NCBI RefSeq assembly: GCF_051903065.1
Contig: NZ_CP178438.1
DNA from: Escherichia coli
Lineage (GTDB): Bacteria > Pseudomonadota > Gammaproteobacteria > Enterobacterales > Enterobacteriaceae
DNA: 64,000 nucleotides
Direction: 5' to 3' (one strand)
The notes under the pieces are model-generated. The model was not told the origin of the DNA. It saw only the letters and a program-made list of their open reading frames with translations, and ran no database searches. Both the position numbers and the translations under genes were made by a program. Positions 13,773 through 59,366 of this stretch are shown piece after piece (position 1 is the stretch's first letter; each line of letters starts with the position of its first letter).

Positions 13773-16574
13773 ATGCAGAACAGCGCTTTGAAAGCCTGGT
13801 TGGACTCTTCTTACCTCTCTGGCGCAAACCAGAGCTGGATAGAACAGCTCTATGAAGACTTCTTAACCGATCCTGACTCGGTTGACGCTAACTGGCGTTC
13901 GACGTTCCAGCAGTTACCTGGTACGGGAGTCAAACCGGATCAATTCCACTCTCAAACGCGTGAATATTTCCGCCGCCTGGCGAAAGACGCTTCACGTTAC
14001 TCTTCAACGATCTCCGACCCTGACACCAATGTGAAGCAGGTTAAAGTCCTGCAGCTCATTAACGCATACCGCTTCCGTGGTCACCAGCATGCGAATCTCG
14101 ATCCGCTGGGACTGTGGCAGCAAGATAAAGTGGCCGATCTGGATCCGTCTTTCCACGATCTGACCGAAGCAGACTTCCAGGAGACCTTCAACGTCGGTTC
14201 ATTTGCCAGCGGCAAAGAAACCATGAAACTCGGCGAACTGCTGGAAGCCCTCAAGCAAACCTACTGCGGCCCGATTGGTGCCGAGTATATGCACATTACC
14301 AGCACCGAAGAAAAACGCTGGATCCAACAGCGTATCGAGTCTGGTCGCGCGACTTTCAATAGCGAAGAGAAAAAACGCTTCTTAAGCGAACTGACCGCCG
14401 CTGAAGGCCTTGAACGTTACCTCGGCGCAAAATTCCCTGGCGCAAAACGCTTCTCGCTGGAAGGCGGTGACGCGTTAATCCCGATGCTTAAAGAGATGAT
14501 TCGCCACGCTGGCAACAGCGGCACCCGCGAAGTGGTTCTCGGGATGGCGCACCGTGGTCGTCTGAACGTGCTGGTGAACGTGCTGGGTAAAAAACCGCAA
14601 GACTTGTTCGACGAGTTTGCCGGTAAACATAAAGAACACCTCGGCACGGGTGACGTGAAATACCACATGGGCTTCTCGTCTGACTTCCAGACCGATGGCG
14701 GCCTGGTGCACCTGGCGCTGGCGTTTAACCCGTCTCACCTTGAGATTGTAAGCCCGGTAGTTATCGGTTCTGTTCGTGCCCGTCTGGACAGACTTGATGA
14801 GCCGAGCAGCAACAAAGTGCTGCCAATCACCATCCACGGTGACGCCGCAGTGACCGGGCAGGGCGTGGTTCAGGAAACTCTGAACATGTCGAAAGCGCGT
14901 GGTTATGAAGTTGGCGGTACGGTACGTATCGTTATCAACAACCAGGTTGGCTTCACCACCTCTAACCCGCTGGATGCCCGTTCAACGCCGTACTGTACTG
15001 ATATCGGTAAGATGGTTCAGGCACCGATTTTCCACGTAAACGCGGACGATCCGGAAGCCGTTGCCTTTGTGACCCGTCTGGCGCTCGATTTCCGTAACAC
15101 CTTTAAACGTGATGTCTTCATCGACCTGGTGTGCTACCGCCGTCACGGCCACAACGAAGCCGACGAGCCGAGCGCAACCCAGCCGCTGATGTATCAGAAA
15201 ATCAAAAAACATCCGACGCCGCGCAAAATCTATGCTGACAAGCTGGAGCAGGAAAAAGTGGCGACGCTGGAAGATGCCACCGAGATGGTTAACCTGTACC
15301 GCGATGCGCTGGATGCTGGCGATTGCGTAGTGGCAGAGTGGCGTCCGATGAACATGCACTCTTTCACCTGGTCGCCGTATCTCAACCACGAATGGGACGA
15401 AGAGTACCCGAACAAAGTTGAGATGAAGCGCCTGCAGGAACTGGCTAAACGCATCAGTACGGTGCCGGAAGCGGTTGAAATGCAGTCTCGCGTTGCCAAG
15501 ATTTATGGCGATCGCCAGGCGATGGCTGCCGGTGAGAAACTGTTCGACTGGGGCGGCGCGGAAAACCTCGCTTACGCCACGCTGGTTGACGAAGGCATTC
15601 CGGTTCGCCTGTCGGGTGAAGACTCCGGTCGCGGTACCTTCTTCCACCGCCACGCGGTGATCCACAACCAGTCTAACGGTTCCACTTACACGCCGCTGCA
15701 ACACATCCATAACGGGCAGGGCGCGTTCCGCGTCTGGGACTCCGTACTGTCTGAAGAAGCCGTGCTGGCGTTTGAATACGGTTATGCCACCGCAGAACCA
15801 CGCACTCTGACCATCTGGGAAGCGCAGTTCGGTGACTTCGCCAACGGTGCGCAGGTGGTTATCGACCAGTTCATCTCCTCTGGCGAACAGAAATGGGGCC
15901 GGATGTGTGGTCTGGTGATGTTGCTGCCGCACGGTTACGAAGGGCAGGGGCCGGAGCACTCCTCCGCGCGTCTGGAACGTTATCTGCAACTTTGTGCTGA
16001 GCAAAACATGCAGGTGTGCGTACCGTCTACCCCGGCACAGGTTTACCACATGCTGCGTCGTCAGGCGCTGCGCGGGATGCGTCGTCCGCTGGTCGTGATG
16101 TCGCCGAAATCCCTGCTGCGTCATCCGCTGGCGGTTTCCAGCCTCGAAGAACTGGCGAACGGCACCTTCCTGCCAGCCATCGGTGAAATCGACGAGCTTG
16201 ATCCGAAGGGCGTGAAGCGCGTAGTGATGTGTTCTGGTAAGGTTTATTACGACCTGCTGGAACAGCGTCGTAAGAACAATCAACACGATGTCGCCATAGT
16301 GCGTATCGAGCAACTCTACCCGTTCCCGCATAAAGCGATGCAGGAAGTGTTGCAGCAGTTTGCTCACGTCAAGGATTTTGTCTGGTGCCAGGAAGAGCCG
16401 CTCAACCAGGGCGCATGGTACTGCAGCCAGCATCATTTCCGTGAAGTGATTCCGTTTGGGGCTTCTCTGCGTTATGCAGGCCGCCCGGCCTCCGCCTCTC
16501 CGGCGGTAGGGTATATGTCCGTTCACCAGAAACAGCAACAAGATCTGGTTAATGACGCGCTGAACGTCGAATAA
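13773..16574 (+). CDS. sucA: 2-oxoglutarate dehydrogenase E1 component
   Basis: 933-aa ORF, recognised SucA sequence. Confidence 0.97.
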
Positions 16575-17825: not shown

Positions 17826-18000
17826 ACTGTAGACCGGATAAGACATTATCGCCTTCTCCGGCAATTGAAGCCTGATGCGACGCTTAACGCGTCTTATCAG
17901 GCCTACGGGAAGCACCGATGTAGGTCGGATAAGGCGCTCGCGCCGCATCCGACAAGCGATGCCAGATGCGACGCTTACACGTCTTATCAGGCCTACGGGT
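17826..18000. repeat. REP/BIME cluster in sucB-sucC spacer
   Basis: Several inverted copies of the GCCTGATGCGACGCTT / AAGCGTCGCATCAGGC-type REP unit. Confidence 0.7.
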
Positions 18001-18081
18001 GACCGACAATACCCGGAAGCGATACGAAATATTCGGTCTACGGTTTAAAAGATAACGATTACTGAAGGATGGACAGAACAC

Positions 18082-19248
18082 ATGAACTTACATGAATATC
18101 AGGCAAAACAACTGTTTGCCCGCTATGGCTTACCAGCACCGGTGGGTTATGCCTGTACTACTCCGCGCGAAGCAGAAGAAGCCGCTTCAAAAATCGGTGC
18201 CGGTCCGTGGGTAGTGAAATGTCAGGTTCACGCTGGTGGCCGCGGTAAAGCGGGCGGTGTGAAAGTTGTAAACAGCAAAGAAGACATCCGTGCTTTTGCA
18301 GAAAACTGGCTGGGCAAGCGTCTGGTAACGTATCAAACAGATGCCAATGGCCAACCGGTTAACCAGATTCTGGTTGAAGCAGCGACCGATATCGCTAAAG
18401 AGCTGTATCTCGGTGCCGTTGTAGACCGTAGTTCCCGTCGCGTGGTCTTTATGGCCTCCACCGAAGGCGGCGTGGAAATCGAAAAAGTGGCGGAAGAAAC
18501 TCCGCACCTGATCCATAAAGTTGCGCTTGATCCGCTGACTGGCCCGATGCCGTATCAAGGACGCGAGCTGGCGTTCAAACTGGGTCTGGAAGGTAAACTG
18601 GTTCAGCAGTTCACCAAAATCTTCATGGGCCTGGCGACCATTTTCCTGGAGCGCGACCTGGCGTTGATCGAAATCAACCCGCTGGTCATCACCAAACAGG
18701 GCGATCTGATTTGCCTCGACGGCAAACTGGGCGCTGATGGCAACGCCCTGTTCCGCCAGCCTGATCTGCGCGAAATGCGTGACCAGTCGCAGGAAGATCC
18801 GCGTGAAGCACAGGCTGCACAGTGGGAACTGAACTACGTTGCGCTGGACGGTAACATCGGTTGTATGGTTAACGGCGCAGGTCTGGCGATGGGTACGATG
18901 GACATCGTTAAACTGCACGGCGGCGAACCAGCTAACTTCCTTGACGTTGGCGGCGGCGCAACCAAAGAACGTGTAACCGAAGCGTTCAAAATCATTCTCT
19001 CTGACGACAAAGTGAAAGCCGTTCTGGTTAACATCTTCGGCGGTATCGTTCGTTGCGACCTGATCGCTGACGGTATCATCGGCGCGGTAGCGGAAGTGGG
19101 TGTTAACGTACCGGTCGTGGTACGTCTGGAAGGTAACAACGCCGAACTCGGCGCGAAGAAACTGGCTGACAGCGGCCTGAATATTATTGCAGCAAAAGGT
19201 CTGACGGATGCAGCTCAGCAGGTTGTTGCCGCAGTGGAGGGGAAATAA
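18082..19248 (+). CDS. sucC: Succinyl-CoA synthetase beta subunit
   Basis: 388-aa ORF, recognised SucC sequence. Confidence 0.97.
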
Positions 19249-20117
19249 TGTCCATTTTAATTGATAAAAACACCAAGGTTATCTGCCAGGGCTTTACCGG
19301 TAGCCAGGGGACTTTCCACTCAGAACAGGCCATTGCATACGGCACTAAAATGGTTGGCGGCGTAACCCCAGGTAAAGGCGGTACTACCCACCTCGGCCTG
19401 CCGGTGTTCAACACCGTGCGTGAAGCTGTTGCTGCTACTGGCGCTACCGCTTCTGTTATCTACGTACCAGCACCGTTCTGCAAAGACTCCATTCTGGAAG
19501 CCATCGACGCAGGCATCAAACTGATTATCACCATCACTGAAGGCATCCCGACGCTGGATATGCTGACCGTGAAAGTGAAGCTGGATGAAGCAGGCGTTCG
19601 TATGATCGGCCCGAACTGCCCAGGCGTTATCACTCCGGGTGAATGCAAAATCGGTATCCAGCCTGGTCACATTCACAAACCGGGTAAAGTGGGTATCGTT
19701 TCCCGTTCCGGTACACTGACCTATGAAGCGGTTAAACAGACCACGGATTACGGTTTCGGTCAGTCGACCTGTGTCGGTATCGGCGGTGACCCGATCCCTG
19801 GCTCTAACTTTATCGACATTCTCGAAATGTTCGAAAAAGATCCGCAGACCGAAGCGATCGTGATGATCGGTGAGATCGGCGGTAGCGCTGAAGAAGAAGC
19901 GGCTGCGTACATCAAAGAGCACGTTACCAAGCCAGTTGTGGGCTACATCGCTGGTGTGACTGCGCCGAAAGGCAAACGTATGGGCCATGCGGGTGCCATC
20001 ATTGCCGGTGGGAAAGGGACTGCGGATGAGAAATTCGCTGCTCTGGAAGCCGCAGGCGTGAAAACCGTTCGCAGCCTGGCGGATATCGGTGAAGCACTGA
20101 AAACTGTTCTGAAATAA
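19248..20117 (+). CDS. sucD: Succinyl-CoA synthetase alpha subunit
   Basis: 289-aa ORF; start overlaps sucC stop. Confidence 0.97.
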
Positions 20118-20216
20118 ATATCTGTAATAAGAAATAGCCCTCGCCGCTTCCCTCTACAGGAATGGCGAAGGGCTGTCGGTTTCGACATGGTTGGCCATCG
20201 TATGATGGCCTTTTTT
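20118..20216 (+). ncRNA. sdhX: 3'UTR-derived small RNA SdhX (RybD) at the end of the sdh-suc transcript
   Basis: About 100 nt directly after the sucD stop with two stem-loops, the second a GC hairpin plus T-run terminator; position matches the described sucD 3'UTR sRNA. Confidence 0.5.
20193..20216 (+). terminator. Rho-independent terminator of sdhCDAB-sucABCD / sdhX
   Basis: Hairpin GGCCATC-GTAT-GATGGCC followed by TTTTTT. Confidence 0.75.
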
Positions 20217-20352
20217 ATGTCTTAAACGGTTAACCACGGTCGAAATCTGACTGCAGGCTTGACTGCATGACCACAACCACTGTGGATTGCCGCGACCGGT
20301 GATGCTGCCAACTTACTGATTTAGTGTATGATGGTGTTTTTGAGGTGCTCCA

Positions 20353-20628
20353 GTGGCTTCTGTTTCTATCAGCTGTCCCTCCTGTTCAGCTACTGACGGG
20401 GTGGTGCGTAACGGCAAAAGCACCGCCGGACATCAGCGCTATCTCTGCTCTCACTGCCGTAAAACATGGCAACTGCAGTTCACTTACACCGCTTCTCAAC
20501 CCGGTACGCACCAGAAAATCATTGATATGGCCATGAATGGCGTTGGATGCCGGGCAACAGCCCGCATTATGGGCGTTGGCCTCAACACGATTTTACGTCA
20601 CTTAAAAAACTCAGGCCGCAGTCGGTAA
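20353..20628 (+). CDS. insA: IS1 InsA (transposition inhibitor, N-terminal part of InsAB' transposase)
   Basis: 91-aa [25 protein letters not shown]... recognised IS1 InsA. Confidence 0.9.
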
Positions 20629-21050
20629 CCTCGCGCATACAGCCGGGCAGTGACGTCATCGTCTGCGCGGAAATGGACGAACAGTGGGGCTATGTCGGGG
20701 CTAAATCGCGCCAGCGCTGGCTGTTTTACGCGTATGACAGGCTCCGGAAGACGGTTGTTGCGCACGTATTCGGTGAACGCACTATGGCGACGCTGGGGCG
20801 TCTTATGAGCCTGCTGTCACCCTTTGACGTGGTGATATGGATGACGGATGGCTGGCCGCTGTATGAATCCCGCCTGAAGGGAAAGCTGCACGTAATCAGC
20901 AAGCGATATACGCAGCGAATTGAGCGGCATAACCTGAATCTGAGGCAGCACCTGGCACGGCTGGGACGGAAGTCGCTGTCGTTCTCAAAATCGGTGGAGC
21001 TGCATGACAAAGTCATCGGGCATTATCTGAACATAAAACACTATCAATAA
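20547..21050 (+). CDS. insB: IS1 InsB reading frame (expressed as InsAB' via -1 frameshift)
   Basis: Overlapping -1 frame ORF; slippery A-run (TTAAAAAACTC) at about 20603 in the insA/insB overlap. Confidence 0.85.
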
Positions 21051-21560
21051 GTTGGAGTCATTACCGCCGCGACCGACCGCAAGCCACGAATAAGAACGAC
21101 GGCGAATTTCGAATCGTTACCTGATGCACTGGCTTCCCAGCGTTTGACCGTAGCGTTAAGTAAATCAACAAAAGCGATGTTCACCGCTTTTCGTCAAGTC
21201 GTGCCATTTGTCAGCCAGGATCGGGTCTTTACCCCGGATATTGCAGCATCGCAAAAATTCTTAGATGGATATGCTATAAATCAAAAATAAAATCTTTGTT
21301 GATTGTTTATCATAATATCCACAGATATGATAAATGATATCAATTTAATAATTTTCACTTAATGTGATTCCGGATAATTCGAAAGGCGCTGTGCTTTTCG
21401 GATTATTATTATCTGATTAAGATATTTGTCACGCCAGCCTTACTGGTTTATAAATGTCAATCATGATTCTTATAAATTATTTATTGCTGCTTTGGTTACC
21501 ATTACTTCGTAATAAGTAATGTATTTTTGATGGTTTAAACTATTTTTAAGGGACGGCATT

Positions 21561-22153
21561 ATGCGAGGGAAAATACCTAAAACGGAACTGCTGGTGACTT
21601 TTGAGGTCGTCGCACGTCATGAAAGTTATACCAGAGCGGCAGAGGAGTTAGCGTTAACCCAAAGTGCAGTATTCAGACAAGTAAGTGCGCTGGAGGAATT
21701 TTTACGTACTCCGTTATTTTCACACTCTAAAAAACGCATTTTTCTTAATGATACAGGGAAGTATTACCTGGGGATAGTAAAAGAAACATTAAATAAGCTG
21801 GAACGCGATACCAATACCATTATGACCTGGCAGCCTACGGTTCAGGTTATTGAACTTGCCGTTAATCCTACTTTTAGTACCCACTGGTTGATCCCAAATT
21901 TACATGAATTCACAAAGTTACATCCCGATATTATTGTTAATATTCATTCTTTAGCTAATAACGGCGATTTTCTTAATCGGGAGTACGATGCTGTCATTAT
22001 GCGCGAAAATTTTTGCGCGCCCTGGGCGGAAGTAGAATATCTCTTTGATGAGGAGATTTTGCCGGTATGCAGCGGCAGTTTGCTTGCAATGTCCGATCAA
22101 AAGCTGTCAGTGGCAGAACTGCTTACTGAGTTACCGCTTCTGCATCAAAGCAC
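21561..22153 (+). pseudogene. LysR-family transcriptional regulator gene, 3'-truncated by IS903-type element
   Basis: N-terminal LysR-type HTH (ESYTRAAEELALTQSAVFRQVSALEE) and start of substrate-binding domain; frame runs straight into the IS inverted repeat at 22154; about 200 codons of an expected roughly 300. Confidence 0.7.
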
Positions 22154-23210
22154 GGCTTTGTTGAATAAATCAGATTTCGGGTAAGTCTCCCCCGTAGCGG
22201 GTTGTGTTTTCAGGCAATACGCACGCTTTCAGGCATACCTGCTTTCGTCATTTTGTTCAGCGCTCGTACCAGGGCCATAGCCTCTGCAACCTGACCATCG
22301 TAGTCACGCAGTGTCAGTGAACCCCCGAACAGCTGTTTTACCCGGTACATCGCCGTTTCCGCTATCGAGCGACGGTTGTAATCTGTTGTCCATTTCCACC
22401 GCGCATTACTCCCGGTCATTCGCTGATTAGCCACTGCACGGTTACGGTCTGCATATTCACCGGGCCAGTAACCCGCACCTTTTCGGGGAGGGATAAGCGC
22501 GCTGATTTTCTTACGCCGCAGTTCATCGTGACATAGCCGGGTATCGTAAGCGCCATCGGCGGCGGCTGACCTGATTTTCCGGTGGGTTTGCCGGATTAAC
22601 CCGGGGAAGGCCTCTGAGTCCGTAACGTTGTTCAGCGACAGGTCAGCGCAGATGATTTCATGTGTTTTACTGTCAACGGCGAGATGCAGCTTACGCCAGA
22701 TACGGCGGCGTTCCTGGCCATGCTTTTTGACTTTCCACTCGCCTTCACCGAAGACCTTCAGCCCGGTGGAATCAATTACCAGGTGTGCGATTTCACCCCG
22801 GGTGGGCGTTTTGAAACTGACATTAACCGACTTTGCCCGCCTGCTGACACAGCTGTAATCCGGGCAGCGTAGCGGAACGTTCATCAGAGAAAAAATGGAA
22901 TCAATAAAGCCCTGCGCAGCGCGCAGGGTCAGCCTGAATACGCGTTTAATGACCAGCACAGTCGTGATGGCAAGGTCAGAATAGCGCTGAGGTCTGCCTC
23001 GTGAAGAAGGTGTTGCTGACTCATACCAGGCCTGAATAGCTTCATCATCCAGCCAGAAAGTTATGGAGCCACGGTTGATGAGGGCTTTATTGTAGGTGGG
23101 CCAGTTGGTGATTTTGAACTTTTGCTTTGCCACGGAACGGTCTGCGTTGTCGGGAAGATACGTGATCTGATCCTTCAACTCAGCAAAAGTTCGATTTATT
23201 CAACAAAGCC
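22154..23210 (-). mobile_element. IS903-type insertion sequence (IS5 family), 1057 bp, no target-site duplication
   Basis: 18-bp terminal inverted repeats GGCTTTGTTGAATAAATC at both ends; single transposase ORF; flanks TCAAAGCAC vs ATTTATCAG do not match. Confidence 0.85.
22210..23133 (-). CDS. IS903-type transposase (DDE, IS5 family)
   Basis: ORF ending ...KAGMPESVRIA, recognised as IS903 transposase; start placed at the GTG giving 307 aa (longest ORF extends to 23178). Confidence 0.85.
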   Translation of the reverse strand: MAKQKFKITNWPTYNKALINRGSITFWLDDEAIQAWYESATPSSRGRPQRYSDLAITTVLVIKRVFRLTLRAAQGFIDSIFSLMNVPLRCPDYSCVSRRAKSVNVSFKTPTRGEIAHLVIDSTGLKVFGEGEWKVKKHGQERRRIWRKLHLAVDSKTHEIICADLSLNNVTDSEAFPGLIRQTHRKIRSAAADGAYDTRLCHDELRRKKISALIPPRKGAGYWPGEYADRNRAVANQRMTGSNARWKWTTDYNRRSIAETAMYRVKQLFGGSLTLRDYDGQVAEAMALVRALNKMTKAGMPESVRIA

Positions 23211-23581
23211 ATTTATCAGGCGAAAGTGGCCTCTGTTCACTCAGAAACAATCACTCCCGGTAAGTCATACCTGTTTCATCGATACATTTAAGTGATTATT
23301 ACTAATGAAACAATAACATAACGGGCTTACGGTCGGTGCTCATAAAGGCAACAATCAATTAACTTTGATAAAAATATGTTATGTAAAATAGCAACAAATT
23401 GGCTACTCTAATCAATTGGTATTATAAAAAGTTGATTGGGCGGTTCTGTTAAATAAAACACTGGTTTTTTATCTATACCTTTTCATTGTAATAATTGTGT
23501 TGCATAAATATTTCACAATAAATTAACAATAAAATCACCAATGATCTATGGTTTATACATAATTAACATATTTGGTTGGTT

Positions 23582-23595
23582 TTGATATAAATCAA
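23582..23595. promoter_or_regulatory. FNR-consensus box in cydA upstream regulatory region
   Basis: Perfect TTGAT-N4-ATCAA (TTGATATAAATCAA) about 340 bp upstream of cydA in a long AT-rich leader. Confidence 0.5.
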
Positions 23596-23932
23596 TTTTT
23601 AATTCTTGAAAAAAATCTGCAAAACACGATAAATTGTCGTAGATCAAATTGGTGAGATCGTGACAATTTCGCTATAAATTGATCACTGTCGAAAAATGCA
23701 AATTTGCTCAATAAAAACCTGTTTATTGTAAGGATTTTGCGGCGTAATATAATTACGGGATCAATTTGGTTTATTCATTAACATATTTGTAACTTTTTTA
23801 TCATTGTCTTTTCCTCTTTTGATGAAATGGCAACGATAGAGGCGAGCAAATAATTTTGTATTGGGGCATGCGTGTGACCCTTTCTAACGGGGTTCACTCT
23901 CGGAGTCTTCATGCGATGAGCAAGGAGTCATG

Positions 23933-25501
23933 ATGTTAGATATAGTCGAACTGTCGCGCTTACAGTTTGCCTTGACCGCGATGTACCACTTCCTTTTTGT
24001 GCCACTGACGCTCGGTATGGCGTTCCTGCTGGCCATTATGGAAACGGTCTACGTCCTTTCCGGCAAACAGATTTATAAAGATATGACCAAGTTCTGGGGC
24101 AAGTTGTTTGGTATTAACTTTGCTCTGGGTGTGGCTACCGGTCTGACCATGGAGTTCCAGTTCGGGACTAACTGGTCTTACTATTCCCACTATGTAGGGG
24201 ATATCTTCGGTGCGCCGCTGGCAATCGAAGGTCTGATGGCCTTCTTCCTCGAATCCACCTTTGTAGGTCTGTTCTTCTTCGGTTGGGATCGTCTGGGTAA
24301 AGTTCAGCATATGTGTGTCACCTGGCTGGTGGCGCTCGGTTCAAACCTGTCCGCACTGTGGATTCTGGTTGCGAACGGCTGGATGCAAAACCCAATCGCG
24401 TCCGATTTCAACTTTGAAACTATGCGTATGGAGATGGTGAGCTTCTCCGAGCTGGTGCTTAACCCGGTTGCTCAGGTGAAATTCGTTCACACTGTAGCGT
24501 CTGGTTATGTGACTGGCGCGATGTTCATCCTCGGTATCAGCGCATGGTATATGCTGAAAGGTCGTGACTTCGCCTTCGCTAAACGCTCCTTTGCTATCGC
24601 TGCCAGCTTCGGTATGGCTGCCGTTCTGTCTGTTATTGTTCTGGGTGATGAATCTGGTTACGAAATGGGCGACGTGCAGAAAACCAAACTGGCTGCTATT
24701 GAAGCTGAGTGGGAAACGCAACCTGCGCCTGCTGCCTTTACTCTGTTCGGCATTCCTGATCAGGAAGAGGAGACGAACAAATTTGCGATCCAGATCCCTT
24801 ACGCGCTGGGCATCATTGCAACGCGTTCCGTGGATACTCCAGTTATCGGCCTGAAAGAACTGATGGTGCAGCATGAAGAACGCATTCGTAACGGGATGAA
24901 GGCGTACTCTCTGCTCGAGCAACTGCGTTCTGGTTCTACCGACCAGGCGGTTCGTGACCAGTTCAATAGCATGAAGAAAGACCTCGGTTACGGTCTGCTG
25001 CTGAAACGCTATACGCCAAACGTGGCTGATGCGACTGAAGCTCAGATTCAACAGGCAACCAAAGACTCCATCCCGCGTGTAGCGCCGCTGTACTTTGCGT
25101 TCCGTATCATGGTGGCGTGTGGCTTCCTGCTGCTGGCAATCATCGCGCTCTCTTTCTGGAGTGTCATCCGCAACCGCATTGGCGAGAAAAAATGGCTCCT
25201 GCGCGCCGCGCTGTACGGTATTCCGCTGCCGTGGATTGCTGTAGAAGCGGGCTGGTTCGTGGCTGAATATGGCCGCCAACCGTGGGCTATCGGTGAAGTG
25301 CTGCCGACAGCTGTGGCGAACTCGTCACTGACCGCAGGCGATCTCATCTTCTCAATGGTGCTGATTTGCGGCCTGTATACCCTGTTCCTGGTGGCAGAAT
25401 TGTTCTTAATGTTCAAGTTTGCACGCCTCGGCCCAAGCAGCCTGAAAACCGGTCGCTATCACTTTGAGCAGTCTTCCACGACTACTCAGCCGGCACGCTA
25501 A
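23933..25501 (+). CDS. cydA: Cytochrome bd-I ubiquinol oxidase subunit I
   Basis: Recognised CydA sequence; start placed at second Met ([12 protein letters not shown]). Confidence 0.97.
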
Positions 25502-25516
25502 GACAGGAGTCGTCAA

Positions 25517-26656
25517 ATGATCGATTATGAAGTATTGCGTTTTATCTGGTGGCTGCTGGTTGGCGTTCTGCTGATTGGTTTTGCAGTCACTGACGGTTTC
25601 GACATGGGGGTGGGCATGCTCACCCGTTTTCTCGGTCGTAACGACACCGAGCGTCGAATTATGATTAACTCCATTGCTCCACACTGGGACGGTAACCAGG
25701 TTTGGCTGATCACCGCGGGCGGCGCACTCTTTGCTGCCTGGCCGATGGTCTATGCCGCTGCGTTCTCCGGCTTCTATGTGGCGATGATCCTCGTGCTGGC
25801 GTCTTTGTTCTTCCGTCCGGTCGGTTTTGACTACCGCTCCAAGATTGAAGAAACCCGCTGGCGTAACATGTGGGACTGGGGCATCTTCATTGGTAGCTTC
25901 GTTCCGCCGCTGGTAATTGGTGTAGCGTTCGGTAACCTGTTGCAGGGCGTACCGTTCAACGTTGATGAATATCTGCGTCTGTACTACACCGGTAACTTCT
26001 TCCAGTTGCTTAATCCGTTCGGCCTGCTGGCAGGCGTGGTGAGCGTAGGGATGATCATTACTCAGGGCGCAACCTATCTGCAAATGCGTACCGTGGGCGA
26101 ACTGCACCTGCGTACCCGTGCAACGGCTCAGGTGGCGGCACTGGTGACACTGGTCTGTTTCGCACTGGCTGGCGTATGGGTGATGTACGGTATCGATGGT
26201 TATGTCGTGAAATCGACAATGGACCATTACGCAGCCTCTAACCCGCTGAATAAAGAAGTGGTTCGTGAAGCTGGCGCATGGCTGGTTAACTTCAACAACA
26301 CGCCAATTCTGTGGGCTATTCCGGCACTGGGTGTGGTTCTGCCGCTGCTGACCATCCTGACTGCACGTATGGATAAAGCCGCGTGGGCGTTTGTGTTCTC
26401 CTCCCTGACGCTGGCCTGCATCATCCTGACAGCCGGTATCGCAATGTTCCCGTTTGTGATGCCGTCCAGCACCATGATGAACGCAAGTCTGACAATGTGG
26501 GATGCAACTTCCAGCCAGCTGACGCTTAACGTCATGACCTGGGTTGCGGTGGTTCTGGTACCGATCATTCTGCTCTACACCGCCTGGTGTTACTGGAAAA
26601 TGTTCGGTCGTATCACCAAAGAAGATATTGAACGTAACACCCACTCTCTGTACTAA
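25517..26656 (+). CDS. cydB: Cytochrome bd-I ubiquinol oxidase subunit II
   Basis: 379-aa polytopic membrane ORF immediately after cydA. Confidence 0.97.
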   Translation: MIDYEVLRFIWWLLVGVLLIGFAVTDGFDMGVGMLTRFLGRNDTERRIMINSIAPHWDGNQVWLITAGGALFAAWPMVYAAAFSGFYVAMILVLASLFFRPVGFDYRSKIEETRWRNMWDWGIFIGSFVPPLVIGVAFGNLLQGVPFNVDEYLRLYYTGNFFQLLNPFGLLAGVVSVGMIITQGATYLQMRTVGELHLRTRATAQVAALVTLVCFALAGVWVMYGIDGYVVKSTMDHYAASNPLNKEVVREAGAWLVNFNNTPILWAIPALGVVLPLLTILTARMDKAAWAFVFSSLTLACIILTAGIAMFPFVMPSSTMMNASLTMWDATSSQLTLNVMTWVAVVLVPIILLYTAWCYWKMFGRITKEDIERNTHSLY

Positions 26657-33042: not shown

Positions 33043-33118
33043 GGGTCGTTAGCTCAGTTGGTAGAGCAGTTGACTTTTAATCAATTGGTCGCAGGTTCGA
33101 ATCCTGCACGACCCACCA
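33043..33118 (+). tRNA. lysT: tRNA-Lys (anticodon UUU)
   Basis: 76 nt, GGGTCGTTAGCTCAGTTGGTAGAGC...CUUUUAAUC anticodon loop...CACCA. Confidence 0.95.
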
Positions 33119-33153
33119 CTAACCTAGTTAGTTGTAGTATCCAGCGTAGTATC

Positions 33154-33229
33154 GGGTGATTAGCTCAGCTGGGAGAGCACCTCCCTTACAAGGAGGGGGT
33201 CGGCGGTTCGATCCCGTCATCACCCACCA
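33154..33229 (+). tRNA. valT: tRNA-Val (anticodon UAC)
   Basis: 76 nt, GGGTGATTAGCTCAGCTGGGAGAGC...CUUACAAGG anticodon loop...CACCA. Confidence 0.95.
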
Positions 33230-33231
33230 CC

Positions 33232-33307
33232 GGGTCGTTAGCTCAGTTGGTAGAGCAGTTGACTTTTAATCAATTGGTCGCAGGTTCGAATCCTGCACGA
33301 CCCACCA
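33232..33307 (+). tRNA. lysW: tRNA-Lys (UUU)
   Basis: Identical copy of the tRNA-Lys sequence. Confidence 0.95.
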
Positions 33308-33358
33308 CTAATTACGGTGGGTTCGGTGGAAGTAGTTTGTAGTATCCAGCGCAGTATC

Positions 33359-33434
33359 GGGTGATTAGCTCAGCTGGGAGAGCACCTCCCTTACAAGGAG
33401 GGGGTCGGCGGTTCGATCCCGTCATCACCCACCA
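33359..33434 (+). tRNA. valZ: tRNA-Val (UAC)
   Basis: Identical copy of the tRNA-Val sequence. Confidence 0.95.
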
Positions 33435-33437
33435 CTC

Positions 33438-33513
33438 GGGTCGTTAGCTCAGTTGGTAGAGCAGTTGACTTTTAATCAATTGGTCGCAGGTTCGAATCCT
33501 GCACGACCCACCA
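33438..33513 (+). tRNA. lysY: tRNA-Lys (UUU)
   Basis: Identical copy of the tRNA-Lys sequence. Confidence 0.95.
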
Positions 33514-33593
33514 ATTTTAACATCAAACTCAGATGTTAAGCGTGAAGGATAACGTTGCGCCAGCAACGGCCCGTAGGGCGAGCGAAGCGAGTC

Positions 33594-33611
33594 ATCCTGC
33601 ACGACCCACCA
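33594..33611 (+). other. Orphan 18-nt copy of the tRNA-Lys 3' end (ATCCTGCACGACCCACCA) in the lysY-lysZ spacer
   Basis: Exact match to the last 18 nt of the tRNA-Lys genes with no upstream tRNA body. Confidence 0.6.
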
Positions 33612-33659
33612 ATCTTAAAGATTGGCCCCGAGTAAAAATCTTTCAGGTAACACCCGTAT

Positions 33660-33735
33660 GGGTCGTTAGCTCAGTTGGTAGAGCAGTTGACTTTTAATCA
33701 ATTGGTCGCAGGTTCGAATCCTGCACGACCCACCA
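33660..33735 (+). tRNA. lysZ: tRNA-Lys (UUU)
   Basis: Identical copy of the tRNA-Lys sequence. Confidence 0.95.
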
Positions 33736-33768
33736 TCCTGAATGATTAAAGCAGCATAATCCCGCAAG

Positions 33769-33844
33769 GGGTCGTTAGCTCAGTTGGTAGAGCAGTTGAC
33801 TTTTAATCAATTGGTCGCAGGTTCGAATCCTGCACGACCCACCA
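33769..33844 (+). tRNA. lysQ: tRNA-Lys (UUU)
   Basis: Identical copy of the tRNA-Lys sequence. Confidence 0.95.
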
Positions 33845-33850
33845 ATGTAA

Positions 33851-59278: not shown

Positions 59279-59366
59279 GCTTTTTTATACTAAGTTGGCC
59301 TTATAAAAAAGCATTGCTTATCAATTTGTTGCAACGAACAGGTCACTATCAGTCAAAATAAAATCA
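59279..59366. other. Lambda attL: bacterial B arm, 15-bp core GCTTTTTTATACTAA (59279-59293), then phage P' arm
   Basis: Host-side sequence CTGC + core as in attB, followed by GTTGGCCTTATAAAAAAGCATTGCTTATCAATTTGTTGCAACGAACAGGTCACTATCAGTCAAAATAAAATCATTATTTGATTTC, recognised as the lambda P' arm. Confidence 0.85.

Follow-up and report, generated by a model that had tools for sequence, protein, structure and literature searches.

What occupies the interval between sucD and cydA in this strain of Escherichia coli, and how were the genes expected there lost? In K-12 the interval contains sdhX, mngR, mngA, and mngB in that order, and the initial annotation had stated that none of the three mng genes is present in the 64,000-nucleotide stretch of DNA analyzed here (the window); the K-12 annotation and BLAST comparison agree with that statement.

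The segment between sucD and cydA

The gene order across the window was sucC (18082-19248), sucD (19248-20117), an IS1 element, the segment of interest, an IS903-type element, an AT-rich stretch, cydA, and cydB, and the features of the interval are collected in Table 1. The window resembles K-12 in both flanks, with sucD and sdhX on the left and cydA plus 373 bp on the right. By BLAST, positions 18068-20224 corresponded to positions 1-2156 of the K-12 locus (L002); the homology ended at 20224, just past sdhX, and resumed at 23557, 373 bp upstream of cydA. These 373 bp common to K-12 were untouched, with IS903B located about 720 bp upstream of cydA. The sdhX sequence was intact, with IS1A inserted about 80 bp downstream of it, and included a terminator-like stem at 20193-20210 followed by a T run. 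A scan of 19800-24200 against Rfam (E <= 0.1) returned no matches, sdhX included, and this small RNA was placed by its K-12 homology.

Table 1 Features of the sucD-cydA interval in the window
Feature	Position	Strand	Remarks
sdhX sRNA (sucD 3' UTR), intact	20118-20218	+	From K-12 annotation (L002 2051-2151); last K-12-homologous sequence on the left
rtcB-family remnants	20228-20297	-	Residues about 451-462 and 381-398; blastn against rtcB of strains 2022H048 and 2779, tblastn with RtcB
IS1A	20298-21065	+	768 bp; inside rtcB remnant; annotated as IS1A-family transposase in a sister genome
rtcB remnant, far side of IS1A	21066-21093	-	Residues about 376-387
HAL/HutH-like ammonia-lyase remnants	21097-21290	+	Two in-frame pieces; blastn against 2022H048 locus (L011) 11597-11658 and 12001-12138
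AT-rich intergenic region	21291-21560	+	Native HAL-LTTR interval, 270 bp, 28.5% GC; same length in 2022H048 (L011 12139-12408)
LTTR, 5' part	21561-22153	+	593 nt, 198 of 301 codons; XH990 locus (L001) 15496-16088 at 100% identity; pseudogene
IS903B (IS5 family)	22154-23210	-	1057 bp; transposase ORF 22210-23178 on the - strand
Right-hand island residue	23211-23556	+	Not K-12-homologous, 30.6% GC; upstream of the former start of the 314-aa gene
cydA	23933-25501	+	Conserved right flank

Two side features were seen elsewhere in the window. Downstream of ybhC, at about 59350-64000 (L010 19073-24501), we found a truncated tyrosine recombinase, an IS481-family transposase, and gtr-like O-antigen glucosylation genes encoding a bactoprenol glucosyl transferase, a GT2 protein, and a DUF6056 protein, a combination suggestive of a decayed prophage at the lambda attachment region. 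Positions 33043-33846 carried a cluster of lysine and valine tRNA genes with internal repeats of ~280 bp at 93% identity, an ordinary array of the lysT-valT-lysW type.

The junction sequences confirmed that the DNA between the two IS elements corresponds exactly to 21066-22153, the coordinates given in the initial annotation, with IS1A ending at 21065 and IS903B starting at 22154. In pairwise BLAST this segment was 100% identical to positions 15001-16088 of the intact locus of E. coli XH990 (L001), and the neighboring DNA matched on either side (window 17857-20298 to L001 12570-15010, and window 23210-25741 to L001 28557-31088). A megablast search with 21066-22153, a comparison that the initial annotation had proposed as a check, found the segment in 1127 of 5426 complete E. 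coli genomes (20.8%), with a query coverage of at least 80% in 979 of them and 100% identity in many; the segment was absent from K-12. The DNA identity to O157:H7 EDL933 was 99.4%, with the same orientation and position downstream of sucD. The exact IS-bounded form was present in just two of the 5426 genomes, 23CRST027 and 23CRST031.

On the basis of its 9-bp target-site duplication GCCGCGACC (20289-20297 and 21066-21074), its insA/insB' ORFs (20353-20628 and 20547-21050), and its length, the left-hand element was assigned to IS1. The duplicated sequence occurs as a single copy in uninterrupted XH990, and because the flanking matches join up in that locus the element is a simple insertion. 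The right-hand element had the length of IS903B, perfect 18-bp inverted repeats (GGCTTTGTTGAATAAATC), and a single transposase ORF; a genome with 100% identity here has this ORF annotated as the IS903B-family transposase WP_000654812.1. Its flanks, TCAAAGCAC and ATTTATCAG, differ and thus form no 9-bp target-site duplication; such an absence is expected if a deletion or recombination came after insertion and is compatible with the assignment to IS903B. Because the BLAST matches break between L001 16088 and 28557, IS903B is located at the junction of a deletion of 12,469 bp (L001 16089-28557, ±1 bp). The exact bracketing by two IS elements would also suit a segment brought in by an IS1-IS903B composite element, rather than one left over from a resident island, but IS1A possesses its own 9-bp duplication, the rtcB remnant continues across IS1A, the DNA outside the two elements is collinear with the intact locus on both sides, and about 980 genomes carry the segment, free of these IS elements, at this site in the same orientation. 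We consider such an import extremely improbable.

The XH990 locus revealed which genes once followed the segment. A LysR-type transcriptional regulator (LTTR) of 301 aa is followed by cobO, a class I fumarate hydratase gene (fumD), a dicarboxylate/amino-acid:cation symporter gene, a DUF4387 gene, an atuA-family gene, mal, glmE, glmL, glmS, and two hypothetical genes, and then by cydA; the genes from cobO to the hypothetical genes are on the strand opposite the LTTR gene and convergent with it. In this island, NCBIfam models recognized three enzymes above their cut-offs: the methylaspartate ammonia-lyase with 544 bits (TIGR01502, cut-off 286), a fumarate hydratase of class I distinct from FumA with 1273 bits (NF011921, cut-off 1060), and CobA with 245 bits (cut-off 168). 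No significant Pfam or NCBIfam family was assigned to the two deleted hypothetical proteins (140 and 314 aa; L001 27026-27448 and 27530-28474). In the window the DNA upstream of cydA directly follows IS903B, and the genes for glutamate mutase, methylaspartate ammonia-lyase, and FumD are missing. The sucD-cydA interval of EDL933 is arranged identically to that of XH990 and has no mngRAB.

The FumD protein of O157:H7 (ECs0757) has been characterized as a mesaconase/fumarase, and the glutamate-fermentation cluster was reported in 26.5% of E. coli and in 90.6% of O157:H7 strains (Kronen & Berg 2015, PLoS One 10:e0145098, PMC4682846); the frequency of the LTTR segment found here is of the same order as the published 26.5%. 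The published O157:H7 cluster (Kronen & Berg 2015, Fig. 5) includes the same LTTR gene, identically placed and oriented, whereas in the window IS903B interrupts that gene at codon 198 and none of the enzyme genes is left. From the NCBIfam assignments of the island enzymes, the EDL933 arrangement, and the description by Kronen & Berg, we conclude with high confidence that the segment is the surviving left edge of this known B12-dependent island for glutamate fermentation by the methylaspartate pathway, with its LTTR truncated by an IS element. The initial annotation had presumed the targets of the regulator to be deleted and had called them unknown; the deletion stands, and the 12.5 kb recovered from XH990 supply the missing genes, from cobO to glmS together with the two hypothetical genes.

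The truncated LysR-type regulator

The ORF at 21561-22184 encodes 207 aa, made up of 198 native LTTR codons and nine codons contributed by IS903B (ALLNKSDFG), and ends at an IS-derived stop; its first 198 residues were identical to those of the 301-aa XH990 protein. This result bears out the initial description of a LysR-type ORF interrupted by the IS903-type repeat after about 200 codons. The N-terminal winged-helix domain was complete (Pfam HTH_1, PF00126, residues 9-66, E 2.5e-16), and the LysR_substrate domain (PF03466) was matched over model positions 7-104 of 209 only, so that a complete effector domain and the length of ~300 aa typical of the group belong to the intact allele and not to the window fragment. 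Intact homologues of 296-306 aa, with 57-99% identity, were found in E. coli, Shigella, Salmonella, Citrobacter, Enterobacter, Klebsiella, Trabulsiella, Yersinia, and Yokenella.

A naturally short regulator of ~200 aa was rejected as virtually impossible, because the intact homologues at these identities are all of full length, the 301-aa allele shares the 198 leading residues, and the last nine codons are those of IS903B; relatives lacking the IS element yielded no intact gene of ~200 aa ending at this position. Among the curated models, the GcvA model (NCBIfam NF008352) was one of the best scoring, with 221 bits for the full-length allele and 150 bits for the fragment against a cut-off of 288, and the DsdC model (NF007491) gave 147 bits for the full-length allele against a cut-off of 316. 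The full-length allele has the two-domain architecture of GcvA- and DsdC-type regulators, but since its scores are under the curated cut-offs we regard it as a relative of the GcvA/DsdC branch rather than an orthologue.

The neighborhoods of the intact gene tie it to the pathway genes, and for this reason we infer that in intact strains the LTTR acts as a pathway-specific regulator of the glm-mal-fumD glutamate-fermentation operon. In Yersinia enterocolitica (63% identity) and Yokenella regensburgei (57%) the LTTR gene is divergent from an operon containing glmS-mutL-glmE-mal-atuA, with fumD and cobA coming after the LTTR gene in Y. enterocolitica; the gene order in these two islands otherwise differs from that of E. 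coli. In Salmonella enterica the LTTR gene and island occupy the same site, downstream of sucD, so the insertion site is common to two genera. In the S. enterica record LR134141 (L015 8206-20906) the island, from the LTTR gene through cobO and fumD to glmS, lies directly 3' of sucD; sucA, sucC, and glmL (mutL) are called as fragmented genes in that record. A Leeia protein 43% identical to the LTTR showed no linkage to glm or mal genes, which limits the synteny argument to orthologues of at least 57% identity within the Enterobacterales. Against the proposed regulatory role, the E. coli LTTR gene converges on the cobO end (3') of the operon instead of diverging from the operon promoter. An alignment of the E. 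coli, Yersinia, and Yokenella DNA upstream of glmS, which is AT-rich and has a mean identity of 57%, contained no convincing conserved operator, and a literature search for regulatory studies of the cluster returned nothing beyond Kronen & Berg 2015.

Whether the shortened protein might still be active in the window was weighed from both sides. Identity to intact alleles is 100% over the 495 bp upstream, the start codon, and the HTH_1 domain, the reading frame is open up to the stop within IS903B, and the predicted 207-aa product would retain the winged-helix domain, the linker, and about half of the effector/oligomerization domain, such that one can imagine a protein that is still made and regulatory, for example as a constitutive repressor at LTTR boxes or as a dominant-negative partner of other LTTRs. 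We judge this very unlikely given that the other half of the effector/oligomerization domain is missing, that the sole conserved genomic partners of the LTTR are deleted, that independent frameshifts and truncations of the gene occur in other lineages, and that PGAP calls the gene a pseudogene. The independent lesions in other lineages suggest relaxed selection. The combined loss of about half of that domain and of the presumed operon leads us to regard the remnant as most probably an inert, non-functional pseudogene. The PGAP label in both 23CRST027 and 23CRST031 is that of a pseudogene ("incomplete; missing C-terminus"). Other decayed forms of the gene observed in E. coli were a 189-aa truncated allele, representing a cluster of 180 sequences, and two frameshifted alleles, and an allele with a 22-aa internal deletion was seen in Shigella dysenteriae/E. 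coli.

Gene debris and larger forms of the locus

The ~500 bp in front of the LTTR gene had been described initially as ORF-less, with a very AT-rich second half. The AT-rich half is as described, with a GC content of 28.5% in 21291-21560 compared with 46.7% in 21066-21290, 42.2% in the LysR fragment, and 50.4% in the whole window. In the first half, in contrast, coding sequence survives: the C-terminal end of a HAL/HutH-like ammonia-lyase persists as an ORF of 48 codons (21144-21290), alongside further remnants of that gene and of rtcB. The HAL remnants comprised residues 378-397 at 21099-21158 (90% identity by tblastn, E 1e-6) and residues 511-556 at 21150-21290 (89% identity, E 3e-23), the latter ending with the stop codon at 21288-21290. 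The rtcB remnants were identified by using XH990 L001 14933-15028 as the blastn query against the rtcB genes of strains 2022H048 (L011) and 2779 (L012). Because rtcB and HAL fragments fill it, the GC-normal half of the spacer represents the debris of older deletions.

The AT-rich half presumably holds the LTTR promoter. Scans for promoter-like sites (10, compared with 7.1 ± 3.0 expected) and for terminator-like sites (6, compared with 4.6 ± 2.2 expected) gave counts not above chance, and since the promoter-like matches were at chance level we claim no specific promoter for this region.

Larger forms of the locus were found in a spread sample of the 1127 matching genomes. Strain 2022H048 carries mngB-rtcB-hutU-permease-hutD-hutI-hutG-HAL followed by the LTTR gene and island, with the other mng genes also present, and strain 2779 carries mngR-mngA-mngB-rtcB followed by the LTTR gene and island. 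The hutG-HAL part was detected in 145 of the 5426 complete genomes, and mngR-mngA in 3884. The initial view of the segment as an alternative to mngR-mngAB was therefore too strong: K-12 has mngRAB and the window lacks it, yet other strains hold mngRAB and the LTTR island side by side. The larger forms carry both, so these are neighboring modules that have been lost in varied combinations rather than allelic alternatives. A literature search for descriptions of the variable region between mngR and cydA likewise yielded nothing beyond Kronen & Berg 2015.

The hut cluster of strain 2022H048 (L011 2238-12138: hutU, permease, hutD, hutI, hutG, and HAL) is Pseudomonas-like and directly adjoins the methylaspartate island, and the Hut enzymes yield glutamate, the substrate of the adjoining pathway. 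One could imagine that the full locus, from mngRAB through rtcB, hut, HAL, the LTTR gene, cobO, and fumD to glmS, formed one catabolic unit leading from histidine to glutamate and on to mesaconate/citramalate, with the LTTR coordinating both modules. We consider this unlikely, and a literature search for a link between hut and methylaspartate genes found none described; if it were true, the window would represent the last stage in the step-by-step loss of a histidine-to-citramalate route from E. coli.

Loss of the island

The comparisons among these loci show a loss in three steps. A larger form of the locus had the order sucD-sdhX-mngR-mngA-mngB-rtcB-hutU-permease-hutD-hutI-hutG-HAL-LTTR-cobO-fumD-symporter-DUF4387-atuA-mal-glmE-glmL-glmS-hyp-hyp-cydA, from which several small-scar deletions removed mngRAB, rtcB, and hut to leave the form seen in XH990 and O157, with debris in front of the LTTR gene. 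In the lineage of the window IS1A then entered this debris by simple insertion with its 9-bp duplication, and an IS903B-associated deletion of 12,469 bp followed, extending from LTTR codon 198 to 83 bp upstream of the last island gene. Relative to XH990, the missing DNA comprises the last 103 LTTR codons and every other island gene, its far end being located 83 bp upstream of the start of the gene for the 314-aa hypothetical protein. The initial annotation had portrayed a strain-variable locus eroded by IS activity, and this core inference is supported; mngRAB, rtcB, and hut, however, had already disappeared before the IS events, with no IS element at the scars, and only the final step, in which the island was lost, is IS-associated.

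The LysR/IS903B and IS903B/cydA junctions were found in only 23CRST027 and 23CRST031 among the 5426 genomes, both from human feces in Ecuador. The window was collinear with 23CRST027 across 64 kb, with two differences, one mismatch and one 47-bp copy. In both sister genomes the full element is followed by a tandem repeat of the final 47 bp of IS903B (23CRST027 L003 21065-21158), whereas the window has one copy only of that IS903B end, at 23164-23210. The 47-bp fragment suggests that the cydA-side junction once had more than one IS903B end, as a nested insertion could have produced; the copy missing from the window could reflect recombination between the repeats or an assembly collapse.

Adjacent deletions and deletions by recombination between IS copies are both established behavior of IS903 and the IS5 family. 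As in other IS903-associated deletions, the window has a complete element with intact inverted repeats, no duplication, and contiguous DNA lost on one side; the simple model does not predict the extra 47-bp terminal fragment of the sister genomes. We slightly favor an adjacent deletion by intramolecular transposition of IS903B, because fewer events would be needed, and a single event of this kind leaves the extra 47-bp IS903B end unexplained. Homologous recombination between two directly oriented IS903B copies, one in the LTTR gene and the other upstream of the gene for the 314-aa protein, could equally have left one hybrid element and is a serious possibility, although we rate it at somewhat under an even chance. 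The non-duplicated flanks of the element and the 47-bp terminal fragment at the cydA-side junction of 23CRST027 and 23CRST031 are both in keeping with such recombination, multiple copies are plausible in view of the about 19-20 places occupied by IS903B in the sister chromosomes, and in strain GN25 IS903B has inserted independently, with the same orientation, only 279 bp away. Recombination requires more events than an adjacent deletion, however, and neither single-insertion precursor was found: queries across both junctions detected no precursor with a simple IS903B insertion at either deletion endpoint in the 5426 complete E. coli genomes. The final sequence would be the same under either model. 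As no precursor genome was found, the deletion mechanism, including the adjacent deletion preferred here, is inferred and not observed. In the GN25 locus (L009) itself, the gene for the 314-aa hypothetical protein bears a simple IS903B insertion, and fumD is interrupted by an internal stop.

The feature is an ordinary product of IS-mediated decay of an accessory metabolic island that has already been described, and both the cluster, by publication, and the pseudogene call, by PGAP in the two sister genomes, are already known. The LysR-type ORF deserves annotation as a pseudogene, and the importance of the feature is otherwise small. The linkage of the LTTR gene of the cluster to the glm and mal genes is kept across the Enterobacterales. 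More broadly, the sucD-cydA interval is a multi-layer decay hotspot in which mngRAB, rtcB, hut, and the LTTR/glm island are variously combined and have left recognizable gene scars, and the lineage of the window has lost the FumD/methylaspartate glutamate-fermentation cluster, which nearly all O157:H7 strains possess and which is carried by about a fifth to a quarter of E. coli.
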